Positions 42,222 through 56,589 of a DNA stretch of 64,000 nucleotides are shown in pieces. A program made the position numbers and the translations under genes. Position 1 is the stretch's first letter, and each line of letters opens with the position of its first letter. The stretch lies in IMG/VR virus record IMGVR_UViG_3300025401_000012, one strand, 5' to 3'. The notes below the pieces were generated by a model. That model searched no databases. It had not been told where the DNA came from and worked only from the letters and a program-made list of their open reading frames with translations. The DNA comes from a virus. Taxonomy: Duplodnaviria > Caudoviricetes.

Positions 42222-44942
42222 TTAACCTCGAGCAATCTTTAACCAACGAGCTAGTTCATCATGGTATGATTCTTTAACACCGTTTGTATTTGGCATAGAT
42301 GTACCATCTTTTCCAATAGTTGTTCCACTAGGTATCAATTTACTACCAAATAAATCTTTACCATCTGGGCCTGTAACTGGTGATGGAGATGTTTTAAATT
42401 TACCAGAATTATCTGTAGTAGTTCCTGCAGGGCTTGATGCTGTTCCAGATTTGTCAGCAGCCTTTTTCTCTCCAGCAACTGAAGTTGCAGCTGCTTCAGC
42501 TGCTTTCTTTTTATCAGCATCTGACACTGGACCTGCTGCGGTTCCTGGACCACTAGGAATAGTAGTTGCAGCGTTACCGCCTTTGTTTGGATCTAGATTA
42601 GAACTGTTAGAATGATCAACTTTGGCGATAACTTGATCACCGTGCGCTACAGCTTTGGTCCAGGCTGGATCTACATCTTTAGGATCGTGTGCTTTTTCTA
42701 ATGCACGAATCTTGTCAATGATTGCTTGCTGTTCTGGAGTTACTTTACTAGCCGATGCATCTGGAGTAGTTGTAGGAGTATCTCCTGTTGTTGTACCAGT
42801 ATCAGCAGATCCTATTCCACTATTATCACCGCCACCACCTGTTGTTGTAGGTTCTGGAGTATCATCTCCGCTTAATGCTGCCGCACCACCGATACCTAGT
42901 GCTGTAGCACCTAACCCAGCTTTAATTGGATTCTTAGCAATTGCAGCTCCGGTCTTAAGCCCAGCTTTTTCAGCACTAGATAATGCTTTGCCTCCGGATC
43001 CGCCCATCTTAGCTAGTCGTTCTGCAGCTGCTGGACTTGCACCACCCTTAACAGTAGATCCTATAAATTTACCAGCACCTTTAACAGCATCTTTACCCAT
43101 GTTCCACAATGCACTTCCTAGTCCTTCTACAATTTCAACTTCGCCTTTTTCATAAGCATCGTTAATAACTGATATAGTAGTTAAGTCTGTTACTTGTTCA
43201 CCGATACCATTATACATATAATAGTATTCGTCTAGATAATATCTTTGTTCTAGTGTTTCTCTAATTGCAGCTTTAGTTTCAATTAATTGTAAACGTTCTT
43301 GTAAACTACGAATACCTTCGGCAACTGTTTGCTGGGATTCTTTGATTCCAGCTTTGCCATATGTTGCTGGGCCTGGTAATCCGTCCGGAGTAAGACCTTG
43401 CGATTGTTGCCATGCTACTAATTTTTGTTTTGTTTCTGGACCCATCATACCATCTGGTTTTGCACCAATTATTTTTTGTAATTGCATTAGTTTTGCATCA
43501 CCGCCAGTTGTTCCTGTCGGAGATGCAGCATCTCCAAATTTACCAGCTTTATAATCACGTGCTAGATTAGCAGCATCTAACCCCATTGATACTGCACCAC
43601 CTACTCCAGGCACTAGACTTAATGCGGCACTAACACCTGCAATTCCTGCGCCAGTCCAATCACCTTCTTGGGCACGTTTGATAGCATCTACAGTACCAAC
43701 AACTAATCCAACACCTGGAATTAATTTGCTTAACATTTTACCACCAGCTTTTGCACCTGCCTTAGCAGCCACTTGTGCAGCCGCTTCTTCAGCACTCTTT
43801 GCAATAGGAACGCCAGCTTTTTGTAAACCAGCGGCAATCTTTGGTGCTTCGGCAGCTGCTGCTGGCGCTGTTTTTGCTATATCTGCAACTCCGGTAGATG
43901 CAGCTTTCATCTCAGGTGCTGCATACTTTACATTACTCACATTACCTTGCATTTGTCCGCCACTAAAATTAGGAGCGGCTTTTGGAACTTCTGCTTTCGG
44001 AACTTCTGCAGCAGGTAATTCTGGTGCTTTATATGAAGCACGGCCAGCTTCAACATTTGCGCCAGCTGAACCTCTAGCGGTCAACGGCTTATCCAATGGA
44101 TCAGCAACATTATATTTTGTTCGCATAAATCCAGGAAGATTTGGATTATCTGCGAGTTCATCTAACTGATAGCCAAAACTTTCAACAAGGCTTTGTGCAA
44201 TACCTGAATTAAATTCTGTACCTTCTCTGTATAGTTGATGATACAAATCAGTTCCTCCACCGGCTAAACCAGTAACAGCAGCACCCGGTAACCCTCCTAC
44301 TACAGCACCAGGGATTGCGCTAGCACCTGTTGCCAGTGCAAGTTCTTTCCAATTAAGTGATTTATTTTTAGGTTTAGGAGTTGGTCCAGGAGTTGGTCCA
44401 GGAGTTGGTCCAGGAGTTGGCATTGGCGCAATATCGCCTTTTATTGTTGCTTCTAGTTGTGCAATTAGTTCTTCTAATTTTTTAGCATCATCATTTGCAA
44501 CAGGAGTTGGTCCAGGCGCTGGGGCCGGAGCAGGAGTTGGTTTGTCTATATCTACCAATGCTTTAGGATCGACATAGGCATACCCTCCTTTGTCAATAAT
44601 TTGTAAACCGGCTGCACGAATACGTGCTGCATCCTTTTGACTTTCTCCAGGACCGCCTGATTGCATCCACTTAAATGGATATCCTTTAGGTTGGGGAGTA
44701 CCGATCTCACCGCCATCGTCTCCGTAAAAAATTTGTCCAGTTTTTGGATTAATAGCTATTCCAAAACGCGGAATTTGATTCATTGGTGTATTTGCTATTT
44801 TTTTAACATCGGCAATCGCAGCTGATTTAGCATCATCTGATTTAAATTTATCGTATGCAGCACGTTGCAGATCTGTATCAGAAGGAGGTTTGCTTTCTTC
44901 TGCAATGTGATCCAACCTTGTCATTAAATCTCTTAAGTTCAT
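42222..44942 (-). CDS. Large putative internal/ejection protein with peptidoglycan-binding domain
   Basis: Start MNLRDLMTRLDHIAEE (GGGG RBS). PG-binding-like LQKIIGAKPDGMMGPETKQKLVAWQQSQGLTPDGLPGPAT, Gly/Ala hydrophobic hairpins and many (I/V/L)xE sites. Confidence 0.65.
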   Translation of the reverse strand: MNLRDLMTRLDHIAEESKPPSDTDLQRAAYDKFKSDDAKSAAIADVKKIANTPMNQIPRFGIAINPKTGQIFYGDDGGEIGTPQPKGYPFKWMQSGGPGESQKDAARIRAAGLQIIDKGGYAYVDPKALVDIDKPTPAPAPAPGPTPVANDDAKKLEELIAQLEATIKGDIAPMPTPGPTPGPTPGPTPKPKNKSLNWKELALATGASAIPGAVVGGLPGAAVTGLAGGGTDLYHQLYREGTEFNSGIAQSLVESFGYQLDELADNPNLPGFMRTKYNVADPLDKPLTARGSAGANVEAGRASYKAPELPAAEVPKAEVPKAAPNFSGGQMQGNVSNVKYAAPEMKAASTGVADIAKTAPAAAAEAPKIAAGLQKAGVPIAKSAEEAAAQVAAKAGAKAGGKMLSKLIPGVGLVVGTVDAIKRAQEGDWTGAGIAGVSAALSLVPGVGGAVSMGLDAANLARDYKAGKFGDAASPTGTTGGDAKLMQLQKIIGAKPDGMMGPETKQKLVAWQQSQGLTPDGLPGPATYGKAGIKESQQTVAEGIRSLQERLQLIETKAAIRETLEQRYYLDEYYYMYNGIGEQVTDLTTISVINDAYEKGEVEIVEGLGSALWNMGKDAVKGAGKFIGSTVKGGASPAAAERLAKMGGSGGKALSSAEKAGLKTGAAIAKNPIKAGLGATALGIGGAAALSGDDTPEPTTTGGGGDNSGIGSADTGTTTGDTPTTTPDASASKVTPEQQAIIDKIRALEKAHDPKDVDPAWTKAVAHGDQVIAKVDHSNSSNLDPNKGGNAATTIPSGPGTAAGPVSDADKKKAAEAAATSVAGEKKAADKSGTASSPAGTTTDNSGKFKTSPSPVTGPDGKDLFGSKLIPSGTTIGKDGTSMPNTNGVKESYHDELARWLKIARG
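44377..44420 (+). repeat. 12-bp tandem repeat GGAGTTGGTCCA, about 3.7 copies (PTPG linker)
   Basis: Read directly; a related PAPAPGPTP linker lies at about 44505-44540. Confidence 0.9.
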
Positions 44943-44965
44943 TATTTTTCCCCGACTTGATATAT

Positions 44966-45817
44966 TTATTTTACTGAGCATTTAGGCACTAGTTTACCGT
45001 TTTTAGTTTGCATGCCTGTTTGAACTTGTCCTGCACGACACACACTAGTTTTCTTTTTTGGCTTAATTGTTTTAGGTGCTGGTAACACATCTTCACCGAT
45101 ATTTTTATCTATTCCTCGACTAGCAACTCCGCCTTGCTTACGTTTTTTAGCAAGTTCGCTAATACCGTGGCGAATTTGTTCCAAATTTTGTTCTAGCCCC
45201 ATGAACATACCACCCTTGGCTTTTGCACAAATTTGTTCCCAAGCAAGTAAATCGTTTGACTCTGCTAATTCAGCAAGCTCTTTTAGTTGAGCACGAGTGC
45301 GCATGATACGATCTTTAAGTGTTGCTGGATTAGCTTTTTCGTGACTATGAATTAATGGATTATTTGGATCTTCAGAATCCATAGCAATTGGAGCTTCGTC
45401 TACTACATAATTACCCATACCAGGACCAACAGTAGGTGCCTTAATTGCACCGTGTGTGCTCATTGGTATATCAAAATTTTCTTTCATTAATACACGTTTA
45501 GCAATAACACCAGCGTACTGATTAATCAATTGCTGTTTTCGTGTGCTTTCTTCTACTTGTTCTTGTTCAACTTCGTGAAAAAATTTATTAAGTAAACTTG
45601 GTTTACGTTCCGTAACGGGAGCAGATTCTTGCTTTTGATAATGTTGCATTGCCATTTGTACAGGTAATGCAACTTTATGTGGATCTTTACCTTCGTGCAA
45701 ATTTTGCACAGTGGCATTTTTATCTACAATAGATAAAAACTTAGCCATGTCATTAGCACCAGCTACAGGCTTTGTAGCAACACTATCCATAGCCTGTAGT
45801 ATGCGCTTCATGTCCAT
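44966..45817 (-). CDS. Putative internal head protein
   Basis: MDMKRILQAMD N-terminus; LHE, VEE, MKE, VDE and IGE sites. Confidence 0.55.
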   Translation of the reverse strand: MDMKRILQAMDSVATKPVAGANDMAKFLSIVDKNATVQNLHEGKDPHKVALPVQMAMQHYQKQESAPVTERKPSLLNKFFHEVEQEQVEESTRKQQLINQYAGVIAKRVLMKENFDIPMSTHGAIKAPTVGPGMGNYVVDEAPIAMDSEDPNNPLIHSHEKANPATLKDRIMRTRAQLKELAELAESNDLLAWEQICAKAKGGMFMGLEQNLEQIRHGISELAKKRKQGGVASRGIDKNIGEDVLPAPKTIKPKKKTSVCRAGQVQTGMQTKNGKLVPKCSVK

Positions 45818-45821
45818 CGGA

Positions 45822-47525
45822 TTATCCCAATAGACGCTTTGTCAATGCACGGATTTGATCAACTTCACGATTTTCAACTAACGCTGGTTTTTCAGCACGA
45901 TTTAAACGAGCTAGTTGTTCTTGCATACGTGTAAAATCTGTAGATTCTTTTACGGTTTCTTTTGCTTTTTTACCAGAACGTAATGCAGCTAAGTCTGATT
46001 TCTCAATCTTGCCATCATGATCAGCATCGATCTTTTCTTGATTGCCTGGCAAATCTTTAACAGCTTTTTTCTCTGCCATATAAGCAGTAGTTTCTTTGAT
46101 GTTCTTCCACATAGCGGCTGCAGCAATTTTCTTACCTTTCTCACCGCCACCAGCTTTCTTAGCAACATCTTTAAAACTCTTGCCTGGCTTACCGATATCT
46201 TTGCCTGCTTTAGCTTTTTTAACTGTAGCAGACTTTTCAGCCTTGCTTAGACCTGCACTTGGTTTAGCTTCGGAAACTTTCTTTGCTCTACCTGTAGGAG
46301 TAGTAGTCGTTGCATATTGATGTATTTGATCAATCTTTTTATGATTGCCTTTTTCAAGAGCGTCCTCTGCTCCTTGTTTTAAGTTTGCACCAGGGCTTTT
46401 GCTTTTGCCAATCTGAGCTACTTTTATAGCAGAGTCTTGACTTCTTTGACCACGAGGTGCGGCTTCTTTAACAGCCTTGCCACCCTTTTCGTCTTTACCA
46501 AGACGTCCGGCGATAACATCACCGCGTGTAATTTTGTCATATGGTTTAGCATTGTTGGCTAGGTTACCGTCGCCTTTCTTAGACGTTTTAGATTTAGCTT
46601 CCATTACAACACCTGGACACTCGTAAATGCCACCACCGTTTAGGTGCGGATGTTGATGGTAGCATTCTCCCATTGCACCATGTGTAATAGTACCGCCACA
46701 TGATTCACATGCTTCTTTGTGATGCATTGCTAATTCTAAATTGCCTGATTTGTGATGTTTTGCATATTCGCAAGCATGGTGATGTGCCATGTTACCAGGA
46801 GCCATTTTGGCTTCATTGGTTGTTGTTTTACCATCTTTGTGAATAGTTTGTTTACCAGGATTTGACTTGCCCCATGCTTTAGATTCTTTTTCTGCAGCTT
46901 TATCCATTGCACGATCACCTGCTTTATCAGCACTACTACGTGCTTTGGCATGTGATTTTGTACGATCATTATCACTGTGTGGCTCATCTGTGAAACGATC
47001 TGGATTATGTTTGTGAGTAATTGTACTACCTTTTTTAGTAGTCGTGCCACCTGTGCTACTACGCTTTTCATAGTCGCCGTTATCATCTGATTTTTTGTTC
47101 TTCCAATCAAATGCGTTTTCTGCCATTTTAGCAGCATCTGCTTTTTTAAGAGCTTTAAGTTTTTCTTTAGCCTCGTTTAAACGGAATTTAAGAACACGTT
47201 TTTGACTTTCACTAATTGGTGCATGATCAACAGCTTCGCCGTACTCACCAATTTTCTTTTCATAAGCTAGATAATGGTAAACACTAGCAATATTAGTAGC
47301 AGCAATAGTAATTTTGCTTTGTACCCATGCTTCTAATTGTTCGTCATCATCGATATGTTCTTGTAAATTGGTAGCATAGTTAGCTAACTTAATTAGCTCT
47401 TGCTTGGCCATTGCGCCTTCTTGGTCGCCGTTACCTTCAGCTGGCCCTTCTAGGCTAGGGTCTGCACCCATATCTGGCATGTCTTGATCCATTTCTGGTG
47501 CTTCTTGATCTAATTCTGGTGGCAT
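45822..47525 (-). CDS. Putative prohead core/internal polyprotein, Lys/His-rich
   Basis: About 11 (hydrophobic)-x-E sites separating short modules, a His/Cys patch and an EF-hand-like DADHDGKIEKSD. TAAATA at 47550. Confidence 0.6.
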   Translation of the reverse strand: MPPELDQEAPEMDQDMPDMGADPSLEGPAEGNGDQEGAMAKQELIKLANYATNLQEHIDDDEQLEAWVQSKITIAATNIASVYHYLAYEKKIGEYGEAVDHAPISESQKRVLKFRLNEAKEKLKALKKADAAKMAENAFDWKNKKSDDNGDYEKRSSTGGTTTKKGSTITHKHNPDRFTDEPHSDNDRTKSHAKARSSADKAGDRAMDKAAEKESKAWGKSNPGKQTIHKDGKTTTNEAKMAPGNMAHHHACEYAKHHKSGNLELAMHHKEACESCGGTITHGAMGECYHQHPHLNGGGIYECPGVVMEAKSKTSKKGDGNLANNAKPYDKITRGDVIAGRLGKDEKGGKAVKEAAPRGQRSQDSAIKVAQIGKSKSPGANLKQGAEDALEKGNHKKIDQIHQYATTTTPTGRAKKVSEAKPSAGLSKAEKSATVKKAKAGKDIGKPGKSFKDVAKKAGGGEKGKKIAAAAMWKNIKETTAYMAEKKAVKDLPGNQEKIDADHDGKIEKSDLAALRSGKKAKETVKESTDFTRMQEQLARLNRAEKPALVENREVDQIRALTKRLLG

Positions 47526-47552
47526 GAGTATACTCCGTTTATCTTTATATAT

Positions 47553-48188
47553 TTAGCCTCTTTTAACGGCGGGCCCACCAAATAAGCTGGTACCTTTAAT
47601 ATCTAAACCGTTTTTGGCTGTTCCATCTGAGTTTTTAGGTTGGTTAACTTTGGGTTGCGGCGGTGCTTTAGTACCTGACCCAGTTGCTACACTACCTGTA
47701 TAACTTTTTTTACCACGTGCCTTACCAGGACTAATGTGTGGATTTACTACTGTTCCAATATTAGCAGCACTAGTAGCACCTACTGTAGCCGATTCTGTTA
47801 CACCATGTTTTTTAGCGGCAGCAATACGTGCATGAAGATGATGCAATCCATGTTCCATACTTCGCGCTTCGCGTTCAGCACTAGTAAGATTTTGTTCGCG
47901 GTCTGCGTATTGCCAACCATTGCCGCCTAATGATTTATATTTTGCTAGCATTCTAGCATATTCGGCTTCTAGTTCTGGAAGATTAGCATGATCTTTTGCT
48001 GTAGCATCTTGGGCACGTTGATGTGTAGCCTGACGGTCTGCATCACGTTTTTCTTGATCTTGACGACGTAATTCATCATGTTCCGGATCGCCGTGTACAC
48101 GTAAGTTTTTAAATTTAGGATTATTCTTTTGTAAATCTTTAAAAAATGACATCATATCATTTTCGTTCATTAGCTCTCGCATTTTCAT
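47553..48188 (-). CDS. Putative internal head protein
   Basis: MKMRELMNE N-terminus; internal VTE|S site. Confidence 0.55.
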   Translation of the reverse strand: MKMRELMNENDMMSFFKDLQKNNPKFKNLRVHGDPEHDELRRQDQEKRDADRQATHQRAQDATAKDHANLPELEAEYARMLAKYKSLGGNGWQYADREQNLTSAEREARSMEHGLHHLHARIAAAKKHGVTESATVGATSAANIGTVVNPHISPGKARGKKSYTGSVATGSGTKAPPQPKVNQPKNSDGTAKNGLDIKGTSLFGGPAVKRG

Positions 48189-48415
48189 TTCTTAATTCCT
48201 CTGTATCCAGTGCCGACAGCACGTTCGCCATTCATAAACTTAGGTAAACTAAACCACAACTTGAACCATTCTTCAGTTCCCGGTTGTATATTTTGTTCAC
48301 GCATGATTTTTGCTTTTTCTGTACCAGTTATACTGATATTACTTCCGCCGTAAGGTTGCAGGCCTTTAAATTCATTAACGCCAGCTAACTTCTTAAGACG
48401 TGCTAATTCATCCAT
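48185..48415 (-). CDS. Putative internal head protein
   Basis: MDELARLKKLAGVNE N-terminus. Confidence 0.55.
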   Translation of the reverse strand: MDELARLKKLAGVNEFKGLQPYGGSNISITGTEKAKIMREQNIQPGTEEWFKLWFSLPKFMNGERAVGTGYRGIKK

Positions 48416-48789
48416 TATACACCGTACTTGTTCTTTTTAGTTTTAGCCACAGGACTTGCGGTATGGGTGTCATCGGGTTCACGGCTAGGTGTACGCGGGC
48501 GTACTTGATGATATTCTGTAGGAATAGCACTATGCACTTGTTGAATCATTTCGTGCTCTTTATCTGTATATGGATGTAAAGTCCACATAGTCCCCATCCA
48601 GCTTTCGTGATCGAGGTCTAATTTTTCTTTACTACCATCAGCCATAGCTAGTGCCATGCCAGTTCTTAATTGATGATAGCTAGGAAACCAACCTCCGGGA
48701 TCACGTTGACGACTAAACCCCTGATGAACAGCATCGTGATGTTCGTGTGGTTTGCCAGATCGCTCAACAATAAATTCTTTAGCTCTCAT
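48415..48789 (-). CDS. Putative internal head protein, paralogue of the C-terminal domain of the upstream gene
   Basis: MRAKEFIVE N-terminus; ends SPVAKTKKNKYGV. Confidence 0.6.
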   Translation of the reverse strand: MRAKEFIVERSGKPHEHHDAVHQGFSRQRDPGGWFPSYHQLRTGMALAMADGSKEKLDLDHESWMGTMWTLHPYTDKEHEMIQQVHSAIPTEYHQVRPRTPSREPDDTHTASPVAKTKKNKYGV

Positions 48790-50063
48790 TATATTCCGTA
48801 TTTGTTCTTTTTAGGTTTAGCTACAGGGCTAGTAACATTACCGCCGTCTGCTTCATTACTAACGCTATCGCTTATATGTGTAATAGCTCCTGCCCCCATT
48901 GTTTTAGCAGCGTCTTTTACCTTTTGCATTTCTGCATCAGTGTATGCTGTAATTAATGGATCACCGCTCATAGCACCTGCGCGAGGCATGTCTGGATTAG
49001 CCATAGCAAGACCAAATCTATATTGCATGTATGGACTACCGTTGGCTTTGTTCATGCTGATGTTAGGAATACTCATGGCATTTTTTAATGCTTGAATATG
49101 TACATGGTGTAATTCTTCCGAACCTCTGCCAGCATATGGTACATCGCCTTCTGCTAGTTTTTTACGCATAAATTCTTGTGCTCTCATTTCTCGTATTACC
49201 TTATTAGCATATTTAACTGAATTTTCAGAAGTCTTAGTATATACTTGTTTAACTTGTTTAGAGCCTTCACCTCTTTCAATTTTTTCAGGATCTTTAGCTT
49301 TTTCTTTTTCAAAATACTTACGCATTTCTTCAGTACTTGCTGAAGATTTTTTAACAACAGGTTTATTAGATTTTGCTAAAAATCCCATCAGGCTTTCATC
49401 AGCTACTTTTTCTTTTTTAGGCTTTTTACCAAAAGTAGGATCAGCCATGCGCACTCCTGCTTTGTGCATTAAGTCTCTAACCTCATTATCATCGAGTTCA
49501 GGACTCATAGCATCACGCCACGCACTGAATTTTTCATCATCTGTTGCGTTAGGATTTTTAAGAATATCACGCATTGGTGTAGCACGTGGGCCTTCTTCTT
49601 CTCTACTAGGATCGTTAGTTTCCTGACGACTAATAACGTTTAAATTATCAAAATTAAATGGAATATTTCCTTGTTTATCGGGCACACCATTATATTGTTT
49701 AACATAACTTAAACTATTAACTTGATCGGCACCGACAACAACAGTACAATCACTATAGCCCATTTCATTTAACTTACGCAGTACACGAGTTAAATCAGGC
49801 ATTTCTTCTGTTGCTGTATGAAATATGTGTCCGTGTTTAGGAAACACTTTTTTGTATATATGCAACTTTTCTTCTGGAGTTATTGGATCATCTTTTCCTA
49901 CGGTACGACTAACAACAAAATAAGGATCTGCGCCCGATTCATTAGCTTGCGTAATAACACTGCTAGCTAGGTACATATGGCCTTTATGACCCATACCGCG
50001 CCCCCATCCTACTACGCAGGATTTGCCTTCTCCGGTGCGATTAAGAAATTCACGTAACAGCAT
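48789..50063 (-). CDS. HxGH (cytidylyl/NMN-adenylyltransferase-like) nucleotidyltransferase with fused C-terminal module
   Basis: Start MLLREFLN at 50063; VVGWGRGMGHKGH, VVGADQV, RATPMR; ends SPVAKPKKNKYGI. Confidence 0.75.
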   Translation of the reverse strand: MLLREFLNRTGEGKSCVVGWGRGMGHKGHMYLASSVITQANESGADPYFVVSRTVGKDDPITPEEKLHIYKKVFPKHGHIFHTATEEMPDLTRVLRKLNEMGYSDCTVVVGADQVNSLSYVKQYNGVPDKQGNIPFNFDNLNVISRQETNDPSREEEGPRATPMRDILKNPNATDDEKFSAWRDAMSPELDDNEVRDLMHKAGVRMADPTFGKKPKKEKVADESLMGFLAKSNKPVVKKSSASTEEMRKYFEKEKAKDPEKIERGEGSKQVKQVYTKTSENSVKYANKVIREMRAQEFMRKKLAEGDVPYAGRGSEELHHVHIQALKNAMSIPNISMNKANGSPYMQYRFGLAMANPDMPRAGAMSGDPLITAYTDAEMQKVKDAAKTMGAGAITHISDSVSNEADGGNVTSPVAKPKKNKYGI

Positions 50064-51915
50064 TGTCTTTCCTTGGCGCCCAATTAGCTTGATCGATTGT
50101 TTTGACAAACTGTCCTGGCAAATCGTGTTTAAATTTACCTCCAGGATGTGCTTGTACATATCCCTCTGGTTTAGTTTGTCGTATCCCACCATGTGTTCCG
50201 GAACTTAATGAATTAATAACTTTCATTTTTTCGTGTGTTAGTAATTCTACAGCACTTAATACTGCATCTAATCCTGGATGTGTTAATACTTTTTCAGCTT
50301 GGCTGTTGCTTAACTTAGTTTGCGCCCATTGAGCAAATTGTTGTTTAACTCCAGCAACACGTAAATTTTGATTATAGAATGAATACAACACATCACCTGG
50401 TTTACTTAAACCTGGCTGCCCAGCAATAAAACTATCAATTAACGATTTATTTTTCTTAATATAATCTTCTGCATGTTTTAATCCAGTATCATCTACTTTA
50501 GGTGGATGTTCGACATACGTTGTACCTTGCACAATAACATCTGGTGTTGATAGTTTTTCTGCATCAGGATACCGTGTTTCATCTGACCCGATATGTGTGT
50601 AATAACCGGTTGCAGCTACCATAACTTTAGCGTTGGCAATACGTTTGCCTAATGCACTGCCTACTGGAATATGAAAACTAGTAATGTTAGGTCTAAAATC
50701 ATATTCGTTAGTCGATTGATTTAGTTGTGCTGGTTGTAACGGACTAAACAATATTCCGCCTTCGATGTATCCTTTTTTAGGACTGATCTTTTCAAAGTAC
50801 GGCCATAGATCTGCAAGGCCTTGCGCAAATGCACGACGTTGTTCTTCTTGTCCAGGTTGTGTGTTACCTGTACCTAGTACAAACATGGCAACGTCATCTG
50901 GATCATTCATCATAGTAGTTACACCACTCTTGGTATGGGTAGTACCACGCTTCATATAATCCCAAGCGTTCTTGGGGAACATATGGAACTTGCCGTCTTC
51001 ATCCCTGCCCCAATAAATGACAGGACTACCATCCCACTTTAATTCTATTGTGCCACCTTTGCTAGTCATATGACGCAGACGTTCAACCGCATGTAATCCA
51101 CCAGTACTACCATTTGTAAATACTAGATCTTCAATGTGCTGATACTTCCGACCTACAGCAGGAGCTGCTGCTTCATTAATTTGTTTAGGACTAACAGCTT
51201 GCCAACTTGCTCCACTGCTTGCAGATTGAAATATTTCATTTCTGCGAGTTTCATCGGGGATTGCGTTCATAATACTTTCAACACTACCCAAATCTTTAGC
51301 ATTTGCATGTGGCCCAATTAAACGTTTAGCAATTTCATCTAAATCGTCACTAATAAATTCTGATTTCTTCCCCATAGCATCTCGGGCATAAAGTCCTTCG
51401 TCCGGAGACCATAACATACCTTGACTACTTGCTAGTGCGTTCATCATCATTTGTTTGTGAACGCCTTTATAAGGACTGCCTTGTGGAATGGAATGATGGT
51501 GAAATTTATGAACCCTTTCGGCATTACCAACAGCTTTAATATCGACTTGATAGAATTTACCTTTATATGGTAAAAGAATATGTACAGTTACTCCGGTTTT
51601 TTTAGTTTGTAAACCTTTGCCTTGCAAATAGTGTTCTAATTCAGCTCTAGTAGTTTTACCATCTTTAGTGCCAAACTGTTTCATCAGTTGACCTAAGTCA
51701 ACCATAACATCTAAATCGCCGCTCATTTTACCAGGAGTCGGTGTCGCTGCGCTTCCAATTAAGTGTACGCTACTTTGTATTCCGTGCAAATATTTGTTTG
51801 TTTCTTGGGCAAGATGCGCAGCAATTGCTTGATCGAATTCTTCGGATTCCGGCCAAATATTTCCACCTTCTAGAATAGGTTTCCTAACATCGAGGAACAA
51901 TTCACGTAATAACAT
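50050..51915 (-). CDS. Pol-beta-type nucleotidyltransferase fused to an ATP-dependent RNA-ligase-like domain
   Basis: N-terminal IGS...GDLD...QVD. C-terminal motifs I (KWDG), III (YIEGGILF), IV (EGYV) and V (FVK). The domains are joined by an INE|A site. Confidence 0.7.
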   Translation of the reverse strand: MLLRELFLDVRKPILEGGNIWPESEEFDQAIAAHLAQETNKYLHGIQSSVHLIGSAATPTPGKMSGDLDVMVDLGQLMKQFGTKDGKTTRAELEHYLQGKGLQTKKTGVTVHILLPYKGKFYQVDIKAVGNAERVHKFHHHSIPQGSPYKGVHKQMMMNALASSQGMLWSPDEGLYARDAMGKKSEFISDDLDEIAKRLIGPHANAKDLGSVESIMNAIPDETRRNEIFQSASSGASWQAVSPKQINEAAAPAVGRKYQHIEDLVFTNGSTGGLHAVERLRHMTSKGGTIELKWDGSPVIYWGRDEDGKFHMFPKNAWDYMKRGTTHTKSGVTTMMNDPDDVAMFVLGTGNTQPGQEEQRRAFAQGLADLWPYFEKISPKKGYIEGGILFSPLQPAQLNQSTNEYDFRPNITSFHIPVGSALGKRIANAKVMVAATGYYTHIGSDETRYPDAEKLSTPDVIVQGTTYVEHPPKVDDTGLKHAEDYIKKNKSLIDSFIAGQPGLSKPGDVLYSFYNQNLRVAGVKQQFAQWAQTKLSNSQAEKVLTHPGLDAVLSAVELLTHEKMKVINSLSSGTHGGIRQTKPEGYVQAHPGGKFKHDLPGQFVKTIDQANWAPRKDNAVT

Positions 51916-51917
51916 TA

Positions 51918-52289
51918 TTAATCCTTGTACTTGCCAGTTTGTATGTGTTCACGTGTTTCTTCGTGTAGTTTTTTACATGCATCTTCACATGTTTTATCTT
52001 CTAAAATATCGGGCAATTCACGGATAGGAAATTTTTTCTTATATAATTTATAACATTCGTGCATTGTTTCTGCAAACATTTTAGCATCTGTAGGTTTTTT
52101 ATCTTTAATACGATCTATGCACTTCATTAAAACAGGAAACACATAACGACGATAAACATGGTCATCATTGTGCATAAAATGCAATAGATCTTCTACTAGA
52201 TCGTAGTCGATTTCACGCTTGTCACCTTGTTTTTTAACAAAATCTAACTCTTTAAAGTGAGCGTTTTCTAATAACTCTTGTATACGCAT
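51918..52289 (-). CDS. Putative internal head protein
   Basis: MRIQELLE N-terminus; TAAATA at 52336. Confidence 0.55.
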   Translation of the reverse strand: MRIQELLENAHFKELDFVKKQGDKREIDYDLVEDLLHFMHNDDHVYRRYVFPVLMKCIDRIKDKKPTDAKMFAETMHECYKLYKKKFPIRELPDILEDKTCEDACKKLHEETREHIQTGKYKD

Positions 52290-52361
52290 ATTGGCCTCAG
52301 TTTTACATACCCAATAGAATGCTATGGATTTAGAGTATTTATCGCTTTTAGGATCAACGGG

Positions 52362-52976
52362 CTAGGCTTTAAGTATGCGTTCAATCTTGCTTATACTACT
52401 ACCCAAGTGCATTTTTGCCAATAATAAGTTGTTATCGCCTGTAATATAAAAGTGTGTACCACCCCAACTGCGCGGCTTTTGTAAATCTCTGATACAACTT
52501 TTAGTTAGCTTGCATTTTGTACTTTTATCAGCCCATTCGATAAATGCAGGGTTAGGTTGTGTAGTCTTACCCAATGTAACTCTAAAATCATAATTTATTT
52601 TAGGCATTATGATTGTATCGGATGTTAAATTATTACCTGCTGGTTCGCAAATATACTTTACCCTGCTGGCATCTAATTTAGCTAGTTTTTCTACGTCTTT
52701 TTTATTGTTAGAATACACACTTATCCACGGACTTTCTACTCGCAAATCTATATCTGCCATTTTAGATAATTCGCTAGCTAATGAAATAGCATATATTTTA
52801 TCGGCTAACGTCTTAATAGAGCTAGATCGGTGAGGGATTGTGTTAGATGAATTTAATTCATCTATAATAGCACTAAATTCTTTATTTCGAAAGAACCCTG
52901 AACCACTGCATACCAGTACAATTTTGTACTGGTATACTCCTCTAAACAATTTTGTAGTAAGTTTTTTACGTAACAT
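52362..52976 (-). CDS. Hypothetical protein
   Basis: Overlaps the clpA 3' end. Confidence 0.55.
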   Translation of the reverse strand: MLRKKLTTKLFRGVYQYKIVLVCSGSGFFRNKEFSAIIDELNSSNTIPHRSSSIKTLADKIYAISLASELSKMADIDLRVESPWISVYSNNKKDVEKLAKLDASRVKYICEPAGNNLTSDTIIMPKINYDFRVTLGKTTQPNPAFIEWADKSTKCKLTKSCIRDLQKPRSWGGTHFYITGDNNLLLAKMHLGSSISKIERILKA

Positions 52977-55245
52977 TTAAATCTACTAATGATGGTGCAT
53001 TATCTACAGTTAAAAGTTGTACTTTTGATTCCTTAGGAGTAGATACTAACAATAACTTATTGTCGGTTACAGTAATACTTAACAAACCGCCGTTCTTAAG
53101 TTCACCAAACAACATTAATTTAGCCAACGGACGTTTGATTTCTTTATCAATAACACGTTGTAACGGACGAGCACCCATTTTAGGATCAAATCCGTTAGTA
53201 ATAAGCCAGTTAGTACTTTCCTTATCTAGTTTAATCTTGATACCCTTTTCTTTAACTTGAGCACGAAGTTCGTCCATGAATTTAACAATAACTTTAGTCA
53301 TTGATTCTTTGCCCAATCTGTTAAATGTCATGATACCGTCTAAACGATTACGGAATTCTGGTGTAAAGAATTTCTTTAAATCTTTATCACTGTATTCTCT
53401 ATCCTGTGTACCAAACCCAATTGTATTCTTTTCAGCATCTTGTGCACCAGCGTTGGTAGTAAGAATAAGAATTAAGTTACGGCAATCTGCTCGTTTACCG
53501 TTTGAACCAGTAATAAAACCATTATCCATCATTTGTAATAATACTGTTGTAACATCTGGGTGAGATTTTTCAACTTCATCAAACAACAGAACAGCATTTG
53601 GATTTTCTTGTATTTGTGTAATTAGTAATCCGGCATTTTCTTCAAATCCAACATAACCCGGAGGGCTACCGATTAGCTTAGAGATGCTATGCTTCTCTTG
53701 GTATTCTGACATATCAAACCGTAATAGTTTAACACCTAGATGCTTGGCAAGCGACTTGGCAGTTTCAGTCTTACCGCAACCGGTTGGCCCCATGAACACA
53801 AACGATCCAATTGGTTTATTTTCTGATTTTAATCCTGCTTGTGCAACCATAATTTTATCTACAACTTCTGTAATAGCAAGATTTTGCCCGTACACTTCTG
53901 CTTGTAAATTAGTTTCTAAAGTAGCAAGATTGCTAGATTCAGTTTCCATAATTTTTTCTTCAGGCATTTGAATCATTTTAGCAAGCTCAAATTGAATCTC
54001 GTGCTCACCGATTACACGTTCTTCTGCAATTTTAAGATTAAAACGCGAGCATGCTACATCAATTAAATCAATAGCTTTGTCTGGAAGTTTTTTATCTGTT
54101 TGATATTTGACAGATAATTTAACAGCTGCCTGCAATGCATCATTACGAATTTTAACATTGTGGAATGTTTCGTAATACTTTTTAATACCCTGTAATATGC
54201 TTAAAGTCATTTCTTGTGTAGGTTCATCGACTGTTATGCGTTGGAAACGACGCATTAATGCACGATCCTTTTCAAAATGCTTACGATATTCTTCCCATGT
54301 TGTGCTAGCAATGACTTTAATATTGCCTTTACTTAGTGCAGGCTTCATCATATTAGCAAGATCGTTAGAACTATTTCCGGCACTGCCTGCACCAGAGATC
54401 ATGTGTGCCTCGTCAATGAATAATACAGTCTTACCTTTCTTTTGTAGAGCTTTGATAACATGTTTAAAACGTTCTTCAAAGTCTCCGCGATATTTAGATC
54501 CAGCTAACATAGCTGAAATATCTAAACTATATACTTTGTAATCTTTTAGGAAATCAGGAACATGCCCTTTGACAATATTATAAGCAAGTCCTTCTGCTAT
54601 AGCAGTTTTTCCTACGCCAGGATCGCCTACTAAGATTACATTGTTTTTGCTACGACGACCTAATGCTAACGCAATGTTTTCTAATTCATCAATACGCCCG
54701 ATAACCGGATCAACTTTTTGTTTTTCTACTAGATCATTTAAGTTACTAGTAAATGCTTTCAACGCTCGATCACTTTGTGAATCTTGTGGACCTTCTTCAT
54801 CTTCGGAAGTATCATTTACATTGTTTAGGTAATCTGCAAACTTATCTTTATCTATTTTGGCTTTATTAATATAGTAATAAGACCAGCTACGTTTTTCACC
54901 GATCATTGCTAAAAATACATCGGTAGGTTCGATTTTCTGTCTGCCATTAAACAGTACTTGTGTAAATGCACGATTAAGCACACGTTCAACACTTTGTGTT
55001 TTTTTAGGTTTAACAACAACATCTTCAATAGTAATTTCTTGGCACTTGTGGTGTAGATAATTGGCCAAATCATCTTTTAATTCTGCAAGATTTGCACCGA
55101 ATCCTTCTATAGTATTACTAAAAGTTTCATCTGCTAACATAGAAAATAACAAATGTTCAATTGTTAGATATTCGTGATGTAATTTTTTAGCTGTATCTAT
55201 TGCACGTTCAAATACAGCTTGTAAGTTATCACTTGGTTCAACCAT
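52966..55245 (-). CDS. clpA: ClpA-type AAA+ unfoldase
   Basis: Clp N-domain HEYLTIEHLL, GDPGVGKT, FIDEAH, GPTGCGKT, LIGSPPGYVG, FDEVEK, IGF loop (TIGFG). No long M-domain. Confidence 0.92.
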   Translation of the reverse strand: MVEPSDNLQAVFERAIDTAKKLHHEYLTIEHLLFSMLADETFSNTIEGFGANLAELKDDLANYLHHKCQEITIEDVVVKPKKTQSVERVLNRAFTQVLFNGRQKIEPTDVFLAMIGEKRSWSYYYINKAKIDKDKFADYLNNVNDTSEDEEGPQDSQSDRALKAFTSNLNDLVEKQKVDPVIGRIDELENIALALGRRSKNNVILVGDPGVGKTAIAEGLAYNIVKGHVPDFLKDYKVYSLDISAMLAGSKYRGDFEERFKHVIKALQKKGKTVLFIDEAHMISGAGSAGNSSNDLANMMKPALSKGNIKVIASTTWEEYRKHFEKDRALMRRFQRITVDEPTQEMTLSILQGIKKYYETFHNVKIRNDALQAAVKLSVKYQTDKKLPDKAIDLIDVACSRFNLKIAEERVIGEHEIQFELAKMIQMPEEKIMETESSNLATLETNLQAEVYGQNLAITEVVDKIMVAQAGLKSENKPIGSFVFMGPTGCGKTETAKSLAKHLGVKLLRFDMSEYQEKHSISKLIGSPPGYVGFEENAGLLITQIQENPNAVLLFDEVEKSHPDVTTVLLQMMDNGFITGSNGKRADCRNLILILTTNAGAQDAEKNTIGFGTQDREYSDKDLKKFFTPEFRNRLDGIMTFNRLGKESMTKVIVKFMDELRAQVKEKGIKIKLDKESTNWLITNGFDPKMGARPLQRVIDKEIKRPLAKLMLFGELKNGGLLSITVTDNKLLLVSTPKESKVQLLTVDNAPSLVDLNVT

Positions 55246-55247
55246 TA

Positions 55248-55742
55248 TTATTTCTTCCTTTGTTGTTTTCTTAATTTTTTAATTGCCAATGCTAGCTTTA
55301 ATGGACTTAGTTTACTAGTAAAACAAATTCCATTTAAATGATCTAACTCATGTTGGAAACATCTAGCATCCCACCCGGTTAATTCTATTATACATTCTTT
55401 TCCATTTCTGTCAAAGTATTTGGCCGTTAATTGTTTGTATCTTTTTACTGATAACCATAGGTTGGGGAAACTTAAACAACCTTCATTACCATCGACTAAT
55501 TCGGTATCTGTTATTAGTATACTAGGATTAAACATACAAAATGGAACTTGATTATCCAATGCAATAGCAAAAACACGTTTAAGTATTCCCACTTGATTAG
55601 CCGCTAACCCGCGACCATTATTAGTAATCATGGCTTGTACCATATCGATTTCTAATTCTTTTGCATTTAGGTCTTTTTCAAAATTCCACTCTGCAGATTG
55701 TTGTTTTAAAACAGGGTCTGTATCTTTAACTAATTTGAGCAT
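55248..55742 (-). CDS. def: Peptide deformylase
   Basis: GLAANQVG, EGCLS, QHELDH. Confidence 0.95.
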   Translation of the reverse strand: MLKLVKDTDPVLKQQSAEWNFEKDLNAKELEIDMVQAMITNNGRGLAANQVGILKRVFAIALDNQVPFCMFNPSILITDTELVDGNEGCLSFPNLWLSVKRYKQLTAKYFDRNGKECIIELTGWDARCFQHELDHLNGICFTSKLSPLKLALAIKKLRKQQRKK

Positions 55743-56589
55743 TTAGTTCTTTTAATTTTGTTACTAACACAGGATCTGTGACTGCAGGAGTTTTAATTTT
55801 AATAACGCTTACAAATCTTCCTCTGTGTCCATTATTTACATTAGTAAATCCGTTTCCATTACTGGCAAATTCTACACCTGATTCTATACCAGGTCTAAGA
55901 TCCAAATCCATTGTATCGCCGGTAATTGTTCTGACTGTTTTTTTACAACCAATCATAGCTTCGATAGGAGTAATATTTACTGTAGCATATAAATCATCTC
56001 CACGTCTTTCAAAATTAGGATCTGACTGAACTATAATAGTTACATTGAGATTGCCACGTGGCGCATTTTGTACACTATCATCACCTAAGCCGTTATATCT
56101 AATAGTATCACCGTTGGCAATGCCAGCAGGCACATTAATTTTTACTGTTTGATTGCGTCCACTAGGTAATTGAAAATTAGCTTCTAATGATTTTCCAAGA
56201 TAAGAATCTATAAAACTTACAGTACATTGTATATTCAAATCTCTATTTCGACGCATATGACCACCGCGCATATGACCAAATATATCGCCAAACGGGCTAC
56301 CTTGCCCAAACGGATCAAATGCTCCGCCAAAAGGATTTCCTGTATTAAAGTGGAATTGAGTCCCACCAAATCCGCCACCAGGCATTCCGCCGTACATCCG
56401 TTGTTGATCGTATTCAGCTTTCTTCTGCGGATCGCTTAGATTTTCATATGCAACAGAAATATCTTTAAACTTGGCCTGATCACCGCCTTTGTCGGGATGA
56501 TGTTTATTAGCCAAGCTTCGGTACGCTTTTTTAATTTCATCTGGGCTAGCATTTTCGCTAACACCTAGTGTTTGGTAATAATCGCTCAT
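55726..56589 (-). CDS. dnaJ: DnaJ/CbpA-class J-domain chaperone without Zn finger
   Basis: DYYQTLGV...HHPDKGG J-domain, G/F-rich linker and C-terminal substrate-binding domain. Confidence 0.9.
   Translation of the reverse strand: MSDYYQTLGVSENASPDEIKKAYRSLANKHHPDKGGDQAKFKDISVAYENLSDPQKKAEYDQQRMYGGMPGGGFGGTQFHFNTGNPFGGAFDPFGQGSPFGDIFGHMRGGHMRRNRDLNIQCTVSFIDSYLGKSLEANFQLPSGRNQTVKINVPAGIANGDTIRYNGLGDDSVQNAPRGNLNVTIIVQSDPNFERRGDDLYATVNITPIEAMIGCKKTVRTITGDTMDLDLRPGIESGVEFASNGNGFTNVNNGHRGRFVSVIKIKTPAVTDPVLVTKLKELNAQIS

Follow-up and report, generated by a model that had tools for sequence, protein, structure and literature searches.

In bacteriophage T4 the capsid-targeting sequence MKTYQEFIAE loads any protein that is fused to it (PMC8442874) and is removed by a single cut (PMC8442874; PMC3012670), and Alt, an injected protein of the same phage, opens with MELITELFDE. 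We describe here a locus with similar leaders in a 64,000-nucleotide stretch of viral DNA (IMG/VR record IMGVR_UViG_3300025401_000012; the whole stretch is called the window below), which derives from a jumbo phage related to T4, with a genome of about 345 kb. Two overlapping minus-strand genes of the window, G1 (50050..51915; 621 amino acids) and G2 (48789..50063; 424 amino acids), are predicted to encode a family-X DNA polymerase, a ligase-like domain of the family DUF6267, and an HxGH nucleotidyltransferase. We consider the chances about even that they form a leader-tagged, injected unit for fill-and-seal repair of breaks, with the HxGH enzyme as its partner. The likeness to T4 internal proteins IPI-III and Alt, which are cut by the prohead protease gp21, lies in a similar short leader (MKTYQEFIAE and MELITELFDE there; MLLRELF.., MLLREFL.. 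and MRAKEFIVE here), in its placement on unrelated but clustered proteins, in candidate [LI]-x-E sites behind it, and in the presence of an S77 protease in the lineage. The cargo differs: T4 packages small basic proteins together with an ADP-ribosyltransferase, whereas the cargo predicted here would be nucleic-acid enzymes, partly in the form of polyproteins with internal sites.

Relatives of G2 have already been met in cyanophage particles. The NMNAT of phage S-SCSM1 was found by mass spectrometry in CsCl-purified virions, and the same is cited for S-CBWM1 and one more phage (PMC9602691); ORF154 of S-CREM2 was detected in virions by three peptides (PMC10665884). These NMNAT-like proteins resemble G2 in a homologous HxGH domain, a leader of the same kind, and Lys-rich neighbours annotated as virion proteins. 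The papers that report them treat them as single auxiliary metabolic enzymes, and links to DUF6267 or Pol X, to a leader or to fusions are not noted there. An earlier note on this DNA, which knew of no such described system, was right as regards the trio of enzymes, but the virion association of one of them had been recorded for cyanophages.

Among repair systems, African swine fever virus (ASFV) encodes a base-excision-repair set of Pol X, DNA ligase and apurinic/apyrimidinic (AP) endonuclease. At the present locus, by comparison, the polymerase and the ligase-like part share one polypeptide, the DUF6267 ligase-like part is without an OB domain, the place of the third enzyme is taken by an HxGH adenylyltransferase, there being no sign of an AP endonuclease, the host is bacterial, and packaging is inferred from the leader. 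T4 Pnkp with Rnl1, and ligases of the Rnl2 and Rnl5 types, share motifs of the K-x-D-G and E-G-Y-V type with DUF6267, and one DUF6267 relative adds a HAD-type phosphatase; the differences are that DUF6267 shows no profile relation to T4 Rnl1 or Rnl2, that no kinase is found here, and that the partner has a DNA-polymerase fold. Bacterial LigD combines ligase, polymerase and phosphoesterase in one protein for end joining. It resembles the present proteins in that polymerase and ligase modules are joined to repair breaks and that some members add a module for cleaning ends; it differs in its polymerase, which is of the primase-polymerase fold, and in its ligase, which is of the classical ATP-dependent DNA type and includes an OB domain. 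Finally, NAD+ reconstitution of the NARP type joins NMNAT with NadV, or Adps with Namat, whereas the conserved partners found for the HxGH enzyme here are the polymerase and DUF6267.

The enzyme domains of G1 and G2

Residues 17-241 of G1 (51193..51867, minus strand) fold, in an AlphaFold2 model built from an alignment of 104 sequences (mean predicted local distance difference test score, pLDDT, 92.7), as the palm and thumb of an apparent minimal family-X DNA polymerase; disorder in this model is confined to residues 1-16, 242-250 and the final five. The domain has the Pol-beta-type palm with its G-S loop and three catalytic carboxylates, D67 and D69 (51709-51717) and D125 (51541-51543), and G54-S55 and all three carboxylates are invariant across 61-63 homologues. 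The palm was aligned structurally to those of Pol beta, Pol lambda and TdT, and the thumb subdomain that directly follows it sets family X apart from TUTases, CCA-adding enzymes and CD-NTases. In structure searches family-X polymerases gave about 170 aligned residues over palm and thumb, against about 100 for nucleotidyltransferases of signalling or AMPylating type; structures of CCA-adding enzymes, TUTases and CD-NTases matched the palm only, with lower scores. The canonical 8-kDa lyase and fingers subdomains are absent from the model, in which the domain (about 225 residues) begins at the palm, and since the same reduction is found in ASFV Pol X, the G1 polymerase fits the minimal family-X subtype only. 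Pfam gave no match to G1 residues 1-250 at E up to 1, and phmmer of the G1 and G2 proteins against PDB sequences gave nothing meaningful, so that the family-X relation is visible at the structure level only. We hold it very probable that the first domain of G1 is a minimal polymerase of the ASFV Pol X type and not a CCA-adding or signalling nucleotidyltransferase. A gene upstream of DUF6267 in phages Syn1 and HTVC008M was considered as a counterpart of this domain and ruled out, there being no similarity.

A short linker, residues 242-250 (51166..51192, minus strand), is the sole internal disordered stretch of G1 (pLDDT <50) and is followed by the second domain, residues 251-621 (50053..51165, minus strand). 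Residues 259-621 match Pfam DUF6267 (E 7e-17), a family with hundreds of metagenomic members on which no paper was found in a literature search. An alignment of 48 diverse members shows no variation at eleven positions (H260, E262, D263, K293, D295, G296, G303, K563, E584, G585 and K605); most of them are kept in a larger alignment, where K293-W-D-G, E584-G-Y-V, H260-x-E-D and K605 show no exception among 77-79 homologues (K293, D295 and G296 of the motif I sequence K-x-D-G in 77/77). On the minus strand K-W-D-G lies at 51028-51039, E-G-Y-V at 50155-50166 and K605 at 50101-50103, and K-W-D-G, E-G-Y-V and K-x-V(/I) thus follow one another as ligase motifs I, IV and V do. F407-x-P-N is nearly invariant as well. 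Other features depart from the classical ligase plan. The acid of ligase motif III is not conserved (E in 30/78), between motifs IIIa and IV there is a helical insert about 95 residues long, and the invariant H-x-E-D box (H-I-E-D, 51127-51138) lies outside the classical motif set; there is no OB-fold or C-terminal substrate-binding domain, and G1 ends 16 residues past the motif V-like lysine.

The nearest solved folds to G1 residues 257-616 are NgrRnl (Rnl5-type) and TbREL1 (Rnl2-type), the likeness being weak. Foldseek also paired DUF6267 with an AFDB 'RNA ligase domain' cluster (E 8.7e-6, low template modelling (TM) score) and, weakly, with the Atu_ph07 RNA ligase; the same program run with the whole G1 model against the PDB was swamped by Pol lambda and Pol beta entries and is uninformative on the second domain. 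A shape search of the Atlas with the G1 model returned mostly DUF6267-family clusters, together with one PF01909 NTP_transf_2 and one PDDEXK_1 cluster, and no cluster annotated as a ligase family. Sequence profiles are silent: hmmsearch with the DUF6267 profile found no match among PDB sequences, and hhalign against T4 Rnl2, Rnl1 and DNA ligase gp30 gave probabilities of <1%. Because the motif order and the weak fold matches fit, yet sequence profiles see no known ligase, 'ligase-like' is graded as probable; the modelled fold is rather likely to be of that kind, and the domain is read as a probable candidate for a divergent lysine-adenylating nucleic-acid ligase.

As a stand-in genome we used G001 (L083), an IMG/VR contig of 345,369 bp that is 94% complete and whose G1 is 86% identical to that of the window. 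PF09414 (RNA ligase) has no match in this genome, including at the homologous locus, and no NAD-dependent ligase was found in it. It does carry a separate canonical ATP-dependent DNA ligase elsewhere, so that DUF6267 is not the replicative ligase, and its candidacy as a 'missing' one is ruled out.

The start of G2 needs a word. The longest possible open reading frame (ORF) begins at 50192, and we place the start at the ATG at 50063 (MLLREFLNRTG...) because more than 100 homologues begin there; the start and leader (MLLREFLNRTGE; 50028..50063, minus strand) share 14 nt with the end of G1, where the longest ORF would share 143 nt. The HxGH Rossmann nucleotidyltransferase domain occupies residues 13-215 (49419..50027, minus strand), and the G2 model is confident only for residues 6-210, with pLDDT 83-94 in the HxGH domain. 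H26-K-G-H29 (49977-49988) is placed after the beta strand at 15-19, and H26, G28 and H29 do not vary among 30 homologues. R160-A-T-P-M-R165 (49569-49586), invariant among close homologues and represented by M-S-A-S-K-M-R in cyanophage relatives, was likened by eye to the second signature, I-S-x-T-x-x-R. Two PHROG families named 'cytidyltransferase', 3041 and 395, match G2 (E 4e-22 and 3e-8, respectively); the fold matches NadD (8aii) and PPAT (6b7d) with a probability of 0.98, a TM score by target of 0.5-0.6 and E of about 1e-2, and Swiss-Prot models of PPAT and NadD with probabilities of 0.96-0.99. Pfam CTP_transf_like (PF01467) does not match the window G2; its cut-off of 21 is passed by two relatives, P0301 (23.4 bits) and S-CREM2 ORF154 (22.3 bits). 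We are confident that the domain is an HxGH nucleotidyltransferase of the NadD/PPAT/NMNAT type, within which PPAT fits as well as NadD or NMNAT. No paper was found in a literature search for 'cytitidyltransferase'.

The earlier note had seen in these two genes a Pol-beta nucleotidyltransferase, an RNA-ligase-like domain and an HxGH transferase. The first is borne out by the family-X palm and thumb structure and the invariant catalytic residues, and the third by the PHROG match at E 4e-22 and fold probabilities of 0.98-0.99 to NadD, PPAT and NMNAT. The second holds as well, at a lower grade: the motif order and the nearest folds agree with it, but the fold likeness is weak and a sequence-profile relation is missing.

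Beyond the enzyme, G2 continues with a Lys/Glu-rich linker of low model confidence whose length varies among homologues (residues 216-292, 49188..49418, minus strand) and a C-terminal module (residues 293-424, 48792..49187, minus strand) that opens M-R-A-Q-E-F, like a leader, and ends S-P-V-A-K-P-K-K-N-K-Y-G-I. The next gene (48415..48789, minus strand) encodes a 124-aa leader-bearing protein (MRAKEFIVE...) that is a paralogue of this module (BLASTP E 5e-9), and both open M-R-A-[KQ]-E-F and end S-P-V-A-K-x-K-K-N-K-Y-G-[IV]. Homologues show several versions of the C-terminal module, exchanged for one another but with both ends preserved. The 'cytidyltransferase' gp130 of HTVC008M (L001 7362-9152; 596 aa) follows the plan of G2, namely leader (MKTLKELL), HxGH enzyme, long charged linker and module, with a different end module, DUF5824 (E 1e-18).

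The three modules recur in many combinations. In some relatives polymerase, DUF6267 and HxGH form one ORF of 984-1003 aa with the junction N-I-A-E-N-I-N-R-T-G; among representatives at 50% identity the arrangements were polymerase alone, DUF6267 alone, polymerase with DUF6267, and DUF6267 with HxGH (795-860 aa). Permuted proteins, in which HxGH comes first, then polymerase, then DUF6267, were also found, and P0276 (1144 aa) has HxGH, a HAD-type hydrolase (DUF2608), polymerase and DUF6267. Phage S-PM2 has a 591-aa DUF6267-cytidyltransferase fusion, and in Syn1 and HTVC008M the two genes adjoin, after gp43-uvsX-gp41. Because they have been fused repeatedly and in permuted order, the three enzymes would be expected to work together in one pathway, and we regard these sequence arrangements as strong evidence for joint action. 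A complex prediction for DUF6267 (251-621) with the HxGH domain scored 0.00, which weighs neither way on binding. In the Atlas a 65-member cluster fuses DUF6267 to Cu/Zn superoxide dismutase; this fusion and the HAD-type one hint at themes of end cleaning and oxidative damage.

Leaders, possible late expression and predicted loading into the head

The leader pattern M-x-x-x-[ED]-[FL]-hydrophobic is present in 6/9 genes of the block 42222-52289 (MNLRDLM, MKMRELM, MRAKEFI, MLLREFL, MLLRELF and MRIQELL). In the whole window it occurs at 7/63 gene starts, six of them in this nine-gene block (hypergeometric P 8e-6), and the seventh, outside the block, is a doubtful gene start. The leaders are 7-16 residues long and mostly conform to M-[RKL]-x-x-[ED]-[FL]-hydrophobic, often with an [LI]-x-E end. 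G1 and G2 both open MLLRE[LF][FL], and the resemblance to capsid-targeting sequences that had been claimed earlier for both starts holds.

In G1 the leader, a candidate capsid-targeting propeptide, comprises residues 1-16 (51868..51915, minus strand), is disordered in the model and ends at I14-L15-E16/G, where the slash, here and below, marks a potential cut. In other phages, stand-alone homologues of each of the domains also bear such leaders, but many stand-alone polymerase-domain proteins are without one and open at ..L-x-E-G-G-N; in agreement with the disorder in the model, this argues that the leader is not part of the polymerase fold. A second [LI]-x-E site in a disordered stretch of G1, I246-N247-E248/A249 (51169-51180), lies in the linker before DUF6267 and is a candidate prohead-protease site. 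It is kept as [ILF]-x-E-A-A in fused homologues, and in alignments it coincides with the point where the N-terminal leader ends in stand-alone DUF6267 proteins, which open MRAREFLLKE/AAP.., MRAFEFLVE/AAKP.. and MKPSDFLTE/AAAP.. (the slash in each aligns with that in I-N-E/AAAP of the G1 linker). The earlier note's I-N-E/A site between the nucleotidyltransferase and ligase-like domains is therefore upheld both by the disorder of the linker and by its conservation.

Late expression of the block is suggested by the motif ATAAATAC. Its four sites in the window (8942, 21881, 52335 and 57536) all fall between genes, on the coding strand, with a start codon 28-51 nt downstream. A tail-fibre gene follows one of them, and that at 52335..52342 (minus strand) heads the block, 46 nt before its first leader-bearing gene. 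The canonical T4 late promoter TATAAATA occurs 0 times in the 64-kb window, against 12.2 +/- 3.1 expected. Judged from these sequences, ATAAATAC is probably the late-promoter core of the lineage and strongly avoided elsewhere. The stand-in genome encodes a gp55-like late sigma factor and has 51 ATAAATA[CT] sites, mostly 4-60 nt before genes; such sites lie before its largest structural genes, at the start of the homologous block and before a small gene next to the protease. That protease is a Peptidase_S77 prohead protease (E 5.6e-27), found with a portal in the gene order of T4 20-67-68-21-22, and the 79-aa protein in the gp67 position opens MILRELFY and contains K-Q-I-N-E. The same leader was not found at the N-termini of T4 gp67 and gp68, so that the argument from the gp67 position rests on gene order only.

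The cyanophage proteins found in virions bear on G2 directly. S-SCSM1 ORF91, the NMNAT, is a direct tblastn match of G2, opens MKSFLQFLKE/AA and is surrounded by four Lys-rich genes annotated 'virion protein'; S-CREM2 ORF154 matches G2 at E 5e-10 and opens MKNFSSFLTE/A. Leaders, late motif, the S77 protease of the relative and these virion detections together make loading into the head plausible, and we predict by analogy, with somewhat better than even confidence, that the G1 and G2 products are virion cargo. The virion pre-loading put forward in the earlier note gains from these points, from the leader in the gp67 position and from the three-domain fusions, and its grade stays at plausible.

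Proposed repair on entry and the rival readings

We propose the following course. The leader-tagged operon of ten kb would be expressed late and its proteins loaded through their leaders into the prohead core, where the S77 prohead protease would cut them behind the leader and at the I-N-E/A linker; the trimmed enzymes would then be ejected together with the DNA. In the cell the most likely target is the phage genome on its arrival, in which the polymerase would fill short gaps and the ligase-like domain would seal the nick. The HxGH enzyme may supply or regenerate an adenylyl cofactor, the leading guess being NAD+ from NMN and ATP, or may act on nucleic-acid ends. Packaging, cleavage, substrates (DNA or RNA) and biological role of the two products are what we infer from the foregoing. 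Fill-and-seal break repair is favoured over addition to tRNA 3' ends because the polymerase has the family-X fold, and as a statement about DNA repair in particular we put it at slightly under an even chance. More doubtful is a broader form of the proposal, in which phages of the T4 superfamily (jumbo phages, cyanophages and pelagiphages) would share a portable leader and inject a single-strand-break repair machine of Pol X, DUF6267 ligase and an NMNAT-like enzyme that regenerates NAD+ for the ligase or pre-adenylylates 5' ends, with a 3'-phosphatase or superoxide dismutase added in some lineages; such a machine would mend, before phage gene expression, genomes that were damaged outside the cell or nicked by defences.

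If injected repair is what the locus encodes, this would be the first bacteriophage found to carry DNA-repair enzymes inside its head, a virus-encoded set of this kind being known so far from ASFV. DUF6267 would have a function, and the recurrence of the 'cytidyltransferase' of marine T4-like phages in virion proteomes would be explained. The T4 capsid-targeting code would extend to jumbo and marine phages, and through the leader the injected proteome of uncultured phages could be predicted from sequence alone. It would also suggest a way in which aquatic phages, during the opening minutes of infection, cope with genomes that are nicked or oxidised or with defences that act by nicking.

Several points weigh against this proposal. 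The cyanophage authors warn that abundant late proteins may co-purify with virions (PMC9602691; PMC10665884). The virion detections concern cyanophage homologues of G2, and not the polymerase-DUF6267 proteins or the present phage. The block itself lies between the DNA polymerase gene and the ClpA-like, deformylase and DnaJ-like genes, outside the head module. The G2 leader is without a clean [LI]-x-E/small site except L3-R4-E5/F; fused relatives have I-A-E/N at the junction. Lastly, the folds nearest to DUF6267 are RNA ligases and not DNA ligases, for which reason its substrate could be RNA.

The first two alternatives seem to us unlikely, each to a similar degree. According to one, the same enzymes stay unpackaged and act late in the cytoplasm, for instance by filling gaps and sealing nicks in replicated concatemers ahead of packaging, the leader serving some other end such as complex assembly, localisation or turnover. 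The placement of the block among replication and chaperone genes would suit such a role, as would the position of the Syn1 and HTVC008M DUF6267 and cytidyltransferase genes after gp43-uvsX-gp41 and the caution of the virion-proteome authors about co-purified abundant proteins. It is harder to reconcile with a leader that is closely like those of the T4 capsid-targeting sequence and Alt and that recurs on the head-core protein in the gp67 position of the stand-in genome, where a separate canonical DNA ligase is available for replication; moreover, at least three phages yielded CsCl-purified virions in which a G2 homologue was detected, and the adjacent 906-aa protein contains a domain for peptidoglycan binding, as ejected proteins typically do.

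According to the other, which is the version of the earlier note, the proteins are an injected counter-defence kit: tRNAs cleaved by anticodon nucleases would be rejoined by DUF6267, RNA 3' ends restored by the Pol-beta-type domain, and NAD+ replenished by the HxGH enzyme against defences that deplete it. This reading stays live mainly because the folds nearest to DUF6267 (NgrRnl, REL1, the AFDB 'RNA ligase domain' cluster and Atu_ph07) are RNA ligases; in addition, a phosphatase of HAD type, which is also the fold of the phosphatase domain in T4 Pnkp, is inserted in one relative, and distant HxGH relatives share G-R-F-(Q/N)-P-x..H motifs with NMNATs. Its RNA side is at odds with the polymerase, which matches family X over palm and thumb and CCA-adding enzymes, TUTases and CD-NTases over the palm only and with lower scores, and neither a kinase nor a cyclic phosphodiesterase healing domain was noticed among the genes of the window; its NAD+ side is weakened by the equally good fit of the HxGH fold to PPAT.

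That DUF6267 is instead of capping type, protein-nucleotidylating or non-catalytic, so that the trio makes or transfers a nucleotide-linked product (such as a cap, primer or modified end), we think improbable. This idea draws on the lack of a detectable sequence relation between DUF6267 and known ligases and on the H-x-E-D box, the insert of about 95 residues and the missing OB domain, all outside the classical ligase scheme, but the invariant K-x-D-G, E-G-Y-V and K-x-V follow the order seen in ligases, ligases are the best solved structural neighbours, and the domain is persistently fused to a polymerase of gap-filling type. Synthesis of a nucleotide second messenger or AMPylation of a protein by the Pol-beta-type domain, the alternative named in the earlier note, is hardly credible, given the higher scores of family-X polymerases (about 170 aligned residues over palm and thumb against about 100) and the fusion to a ligase-like domain.

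Other genes of the block and the window

The first gene of the block (51918..52289, minus strand) encodes a 123-aa leader-bearing protein (MRIQELLE...) without a family match. The rest of the block beyond G1, G2 and the 124-aa paralogue (42222..48415, minus strand) encodes proteins of 906, 283, 567, 211 (MKMRELM...) and 76 aa, mostly of low complexity and rich in Lys and Glu. The sole Pfam match among the other block proteins is the peptidoglycan-binding domain of the 906-aa protein (start at 44942, minus strand; leader MNLRDLM), which with its Gly/Ala-rich hydrophobic stretches and Pro/Thr linkers resembles an ejected envelope-spanning protein. The 567-aa ORF (45822-47525) has a leader-like sequence, M-A-K-Q-E-L-I-K-L, at residue 39 (M-A-K-A-D-L-F-K-L in the G001 homologue), so that its true start may be at 47411; the protein has a His/Cys-rich cluster.

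Further leader-bearing enzymes in the stand-in genome indicate that the set of candidate cargo exceeds the block. One, at 321876-322571, is a second Pol-beta-type nucleotidyltransferase (MNFQEFID.., with G-S...D-x-D), and another, at 336904-337314, is a 136-aa protein (MKIKELLTE..) with the zincin motif H-E-L-V-H.

The locus had no match at the DNA level among 50,697 phage records. In the window, tail-fibre genes occupy 1-15.8 kb and are followed by a long minus-strand run that holds HNH endonuclease, exonuclease and family-B DNA polymerase genes (the last at 39113-41782), the G1/G2 locus, and ClpA-like, peptide deformylase and DnaJ-like genes. The family-B DNA polymerase is 43-49% identical to its counterparts in jumbo phages of 350-490 kb. 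Upstream of the block, at 52966-56589, the ClpA-like AAA+ protein (759 aa; PHROG 4871, E 1e-248), the peptide deformylase and the J-domain protein form a protein-handling trio that is unusual in a phage.

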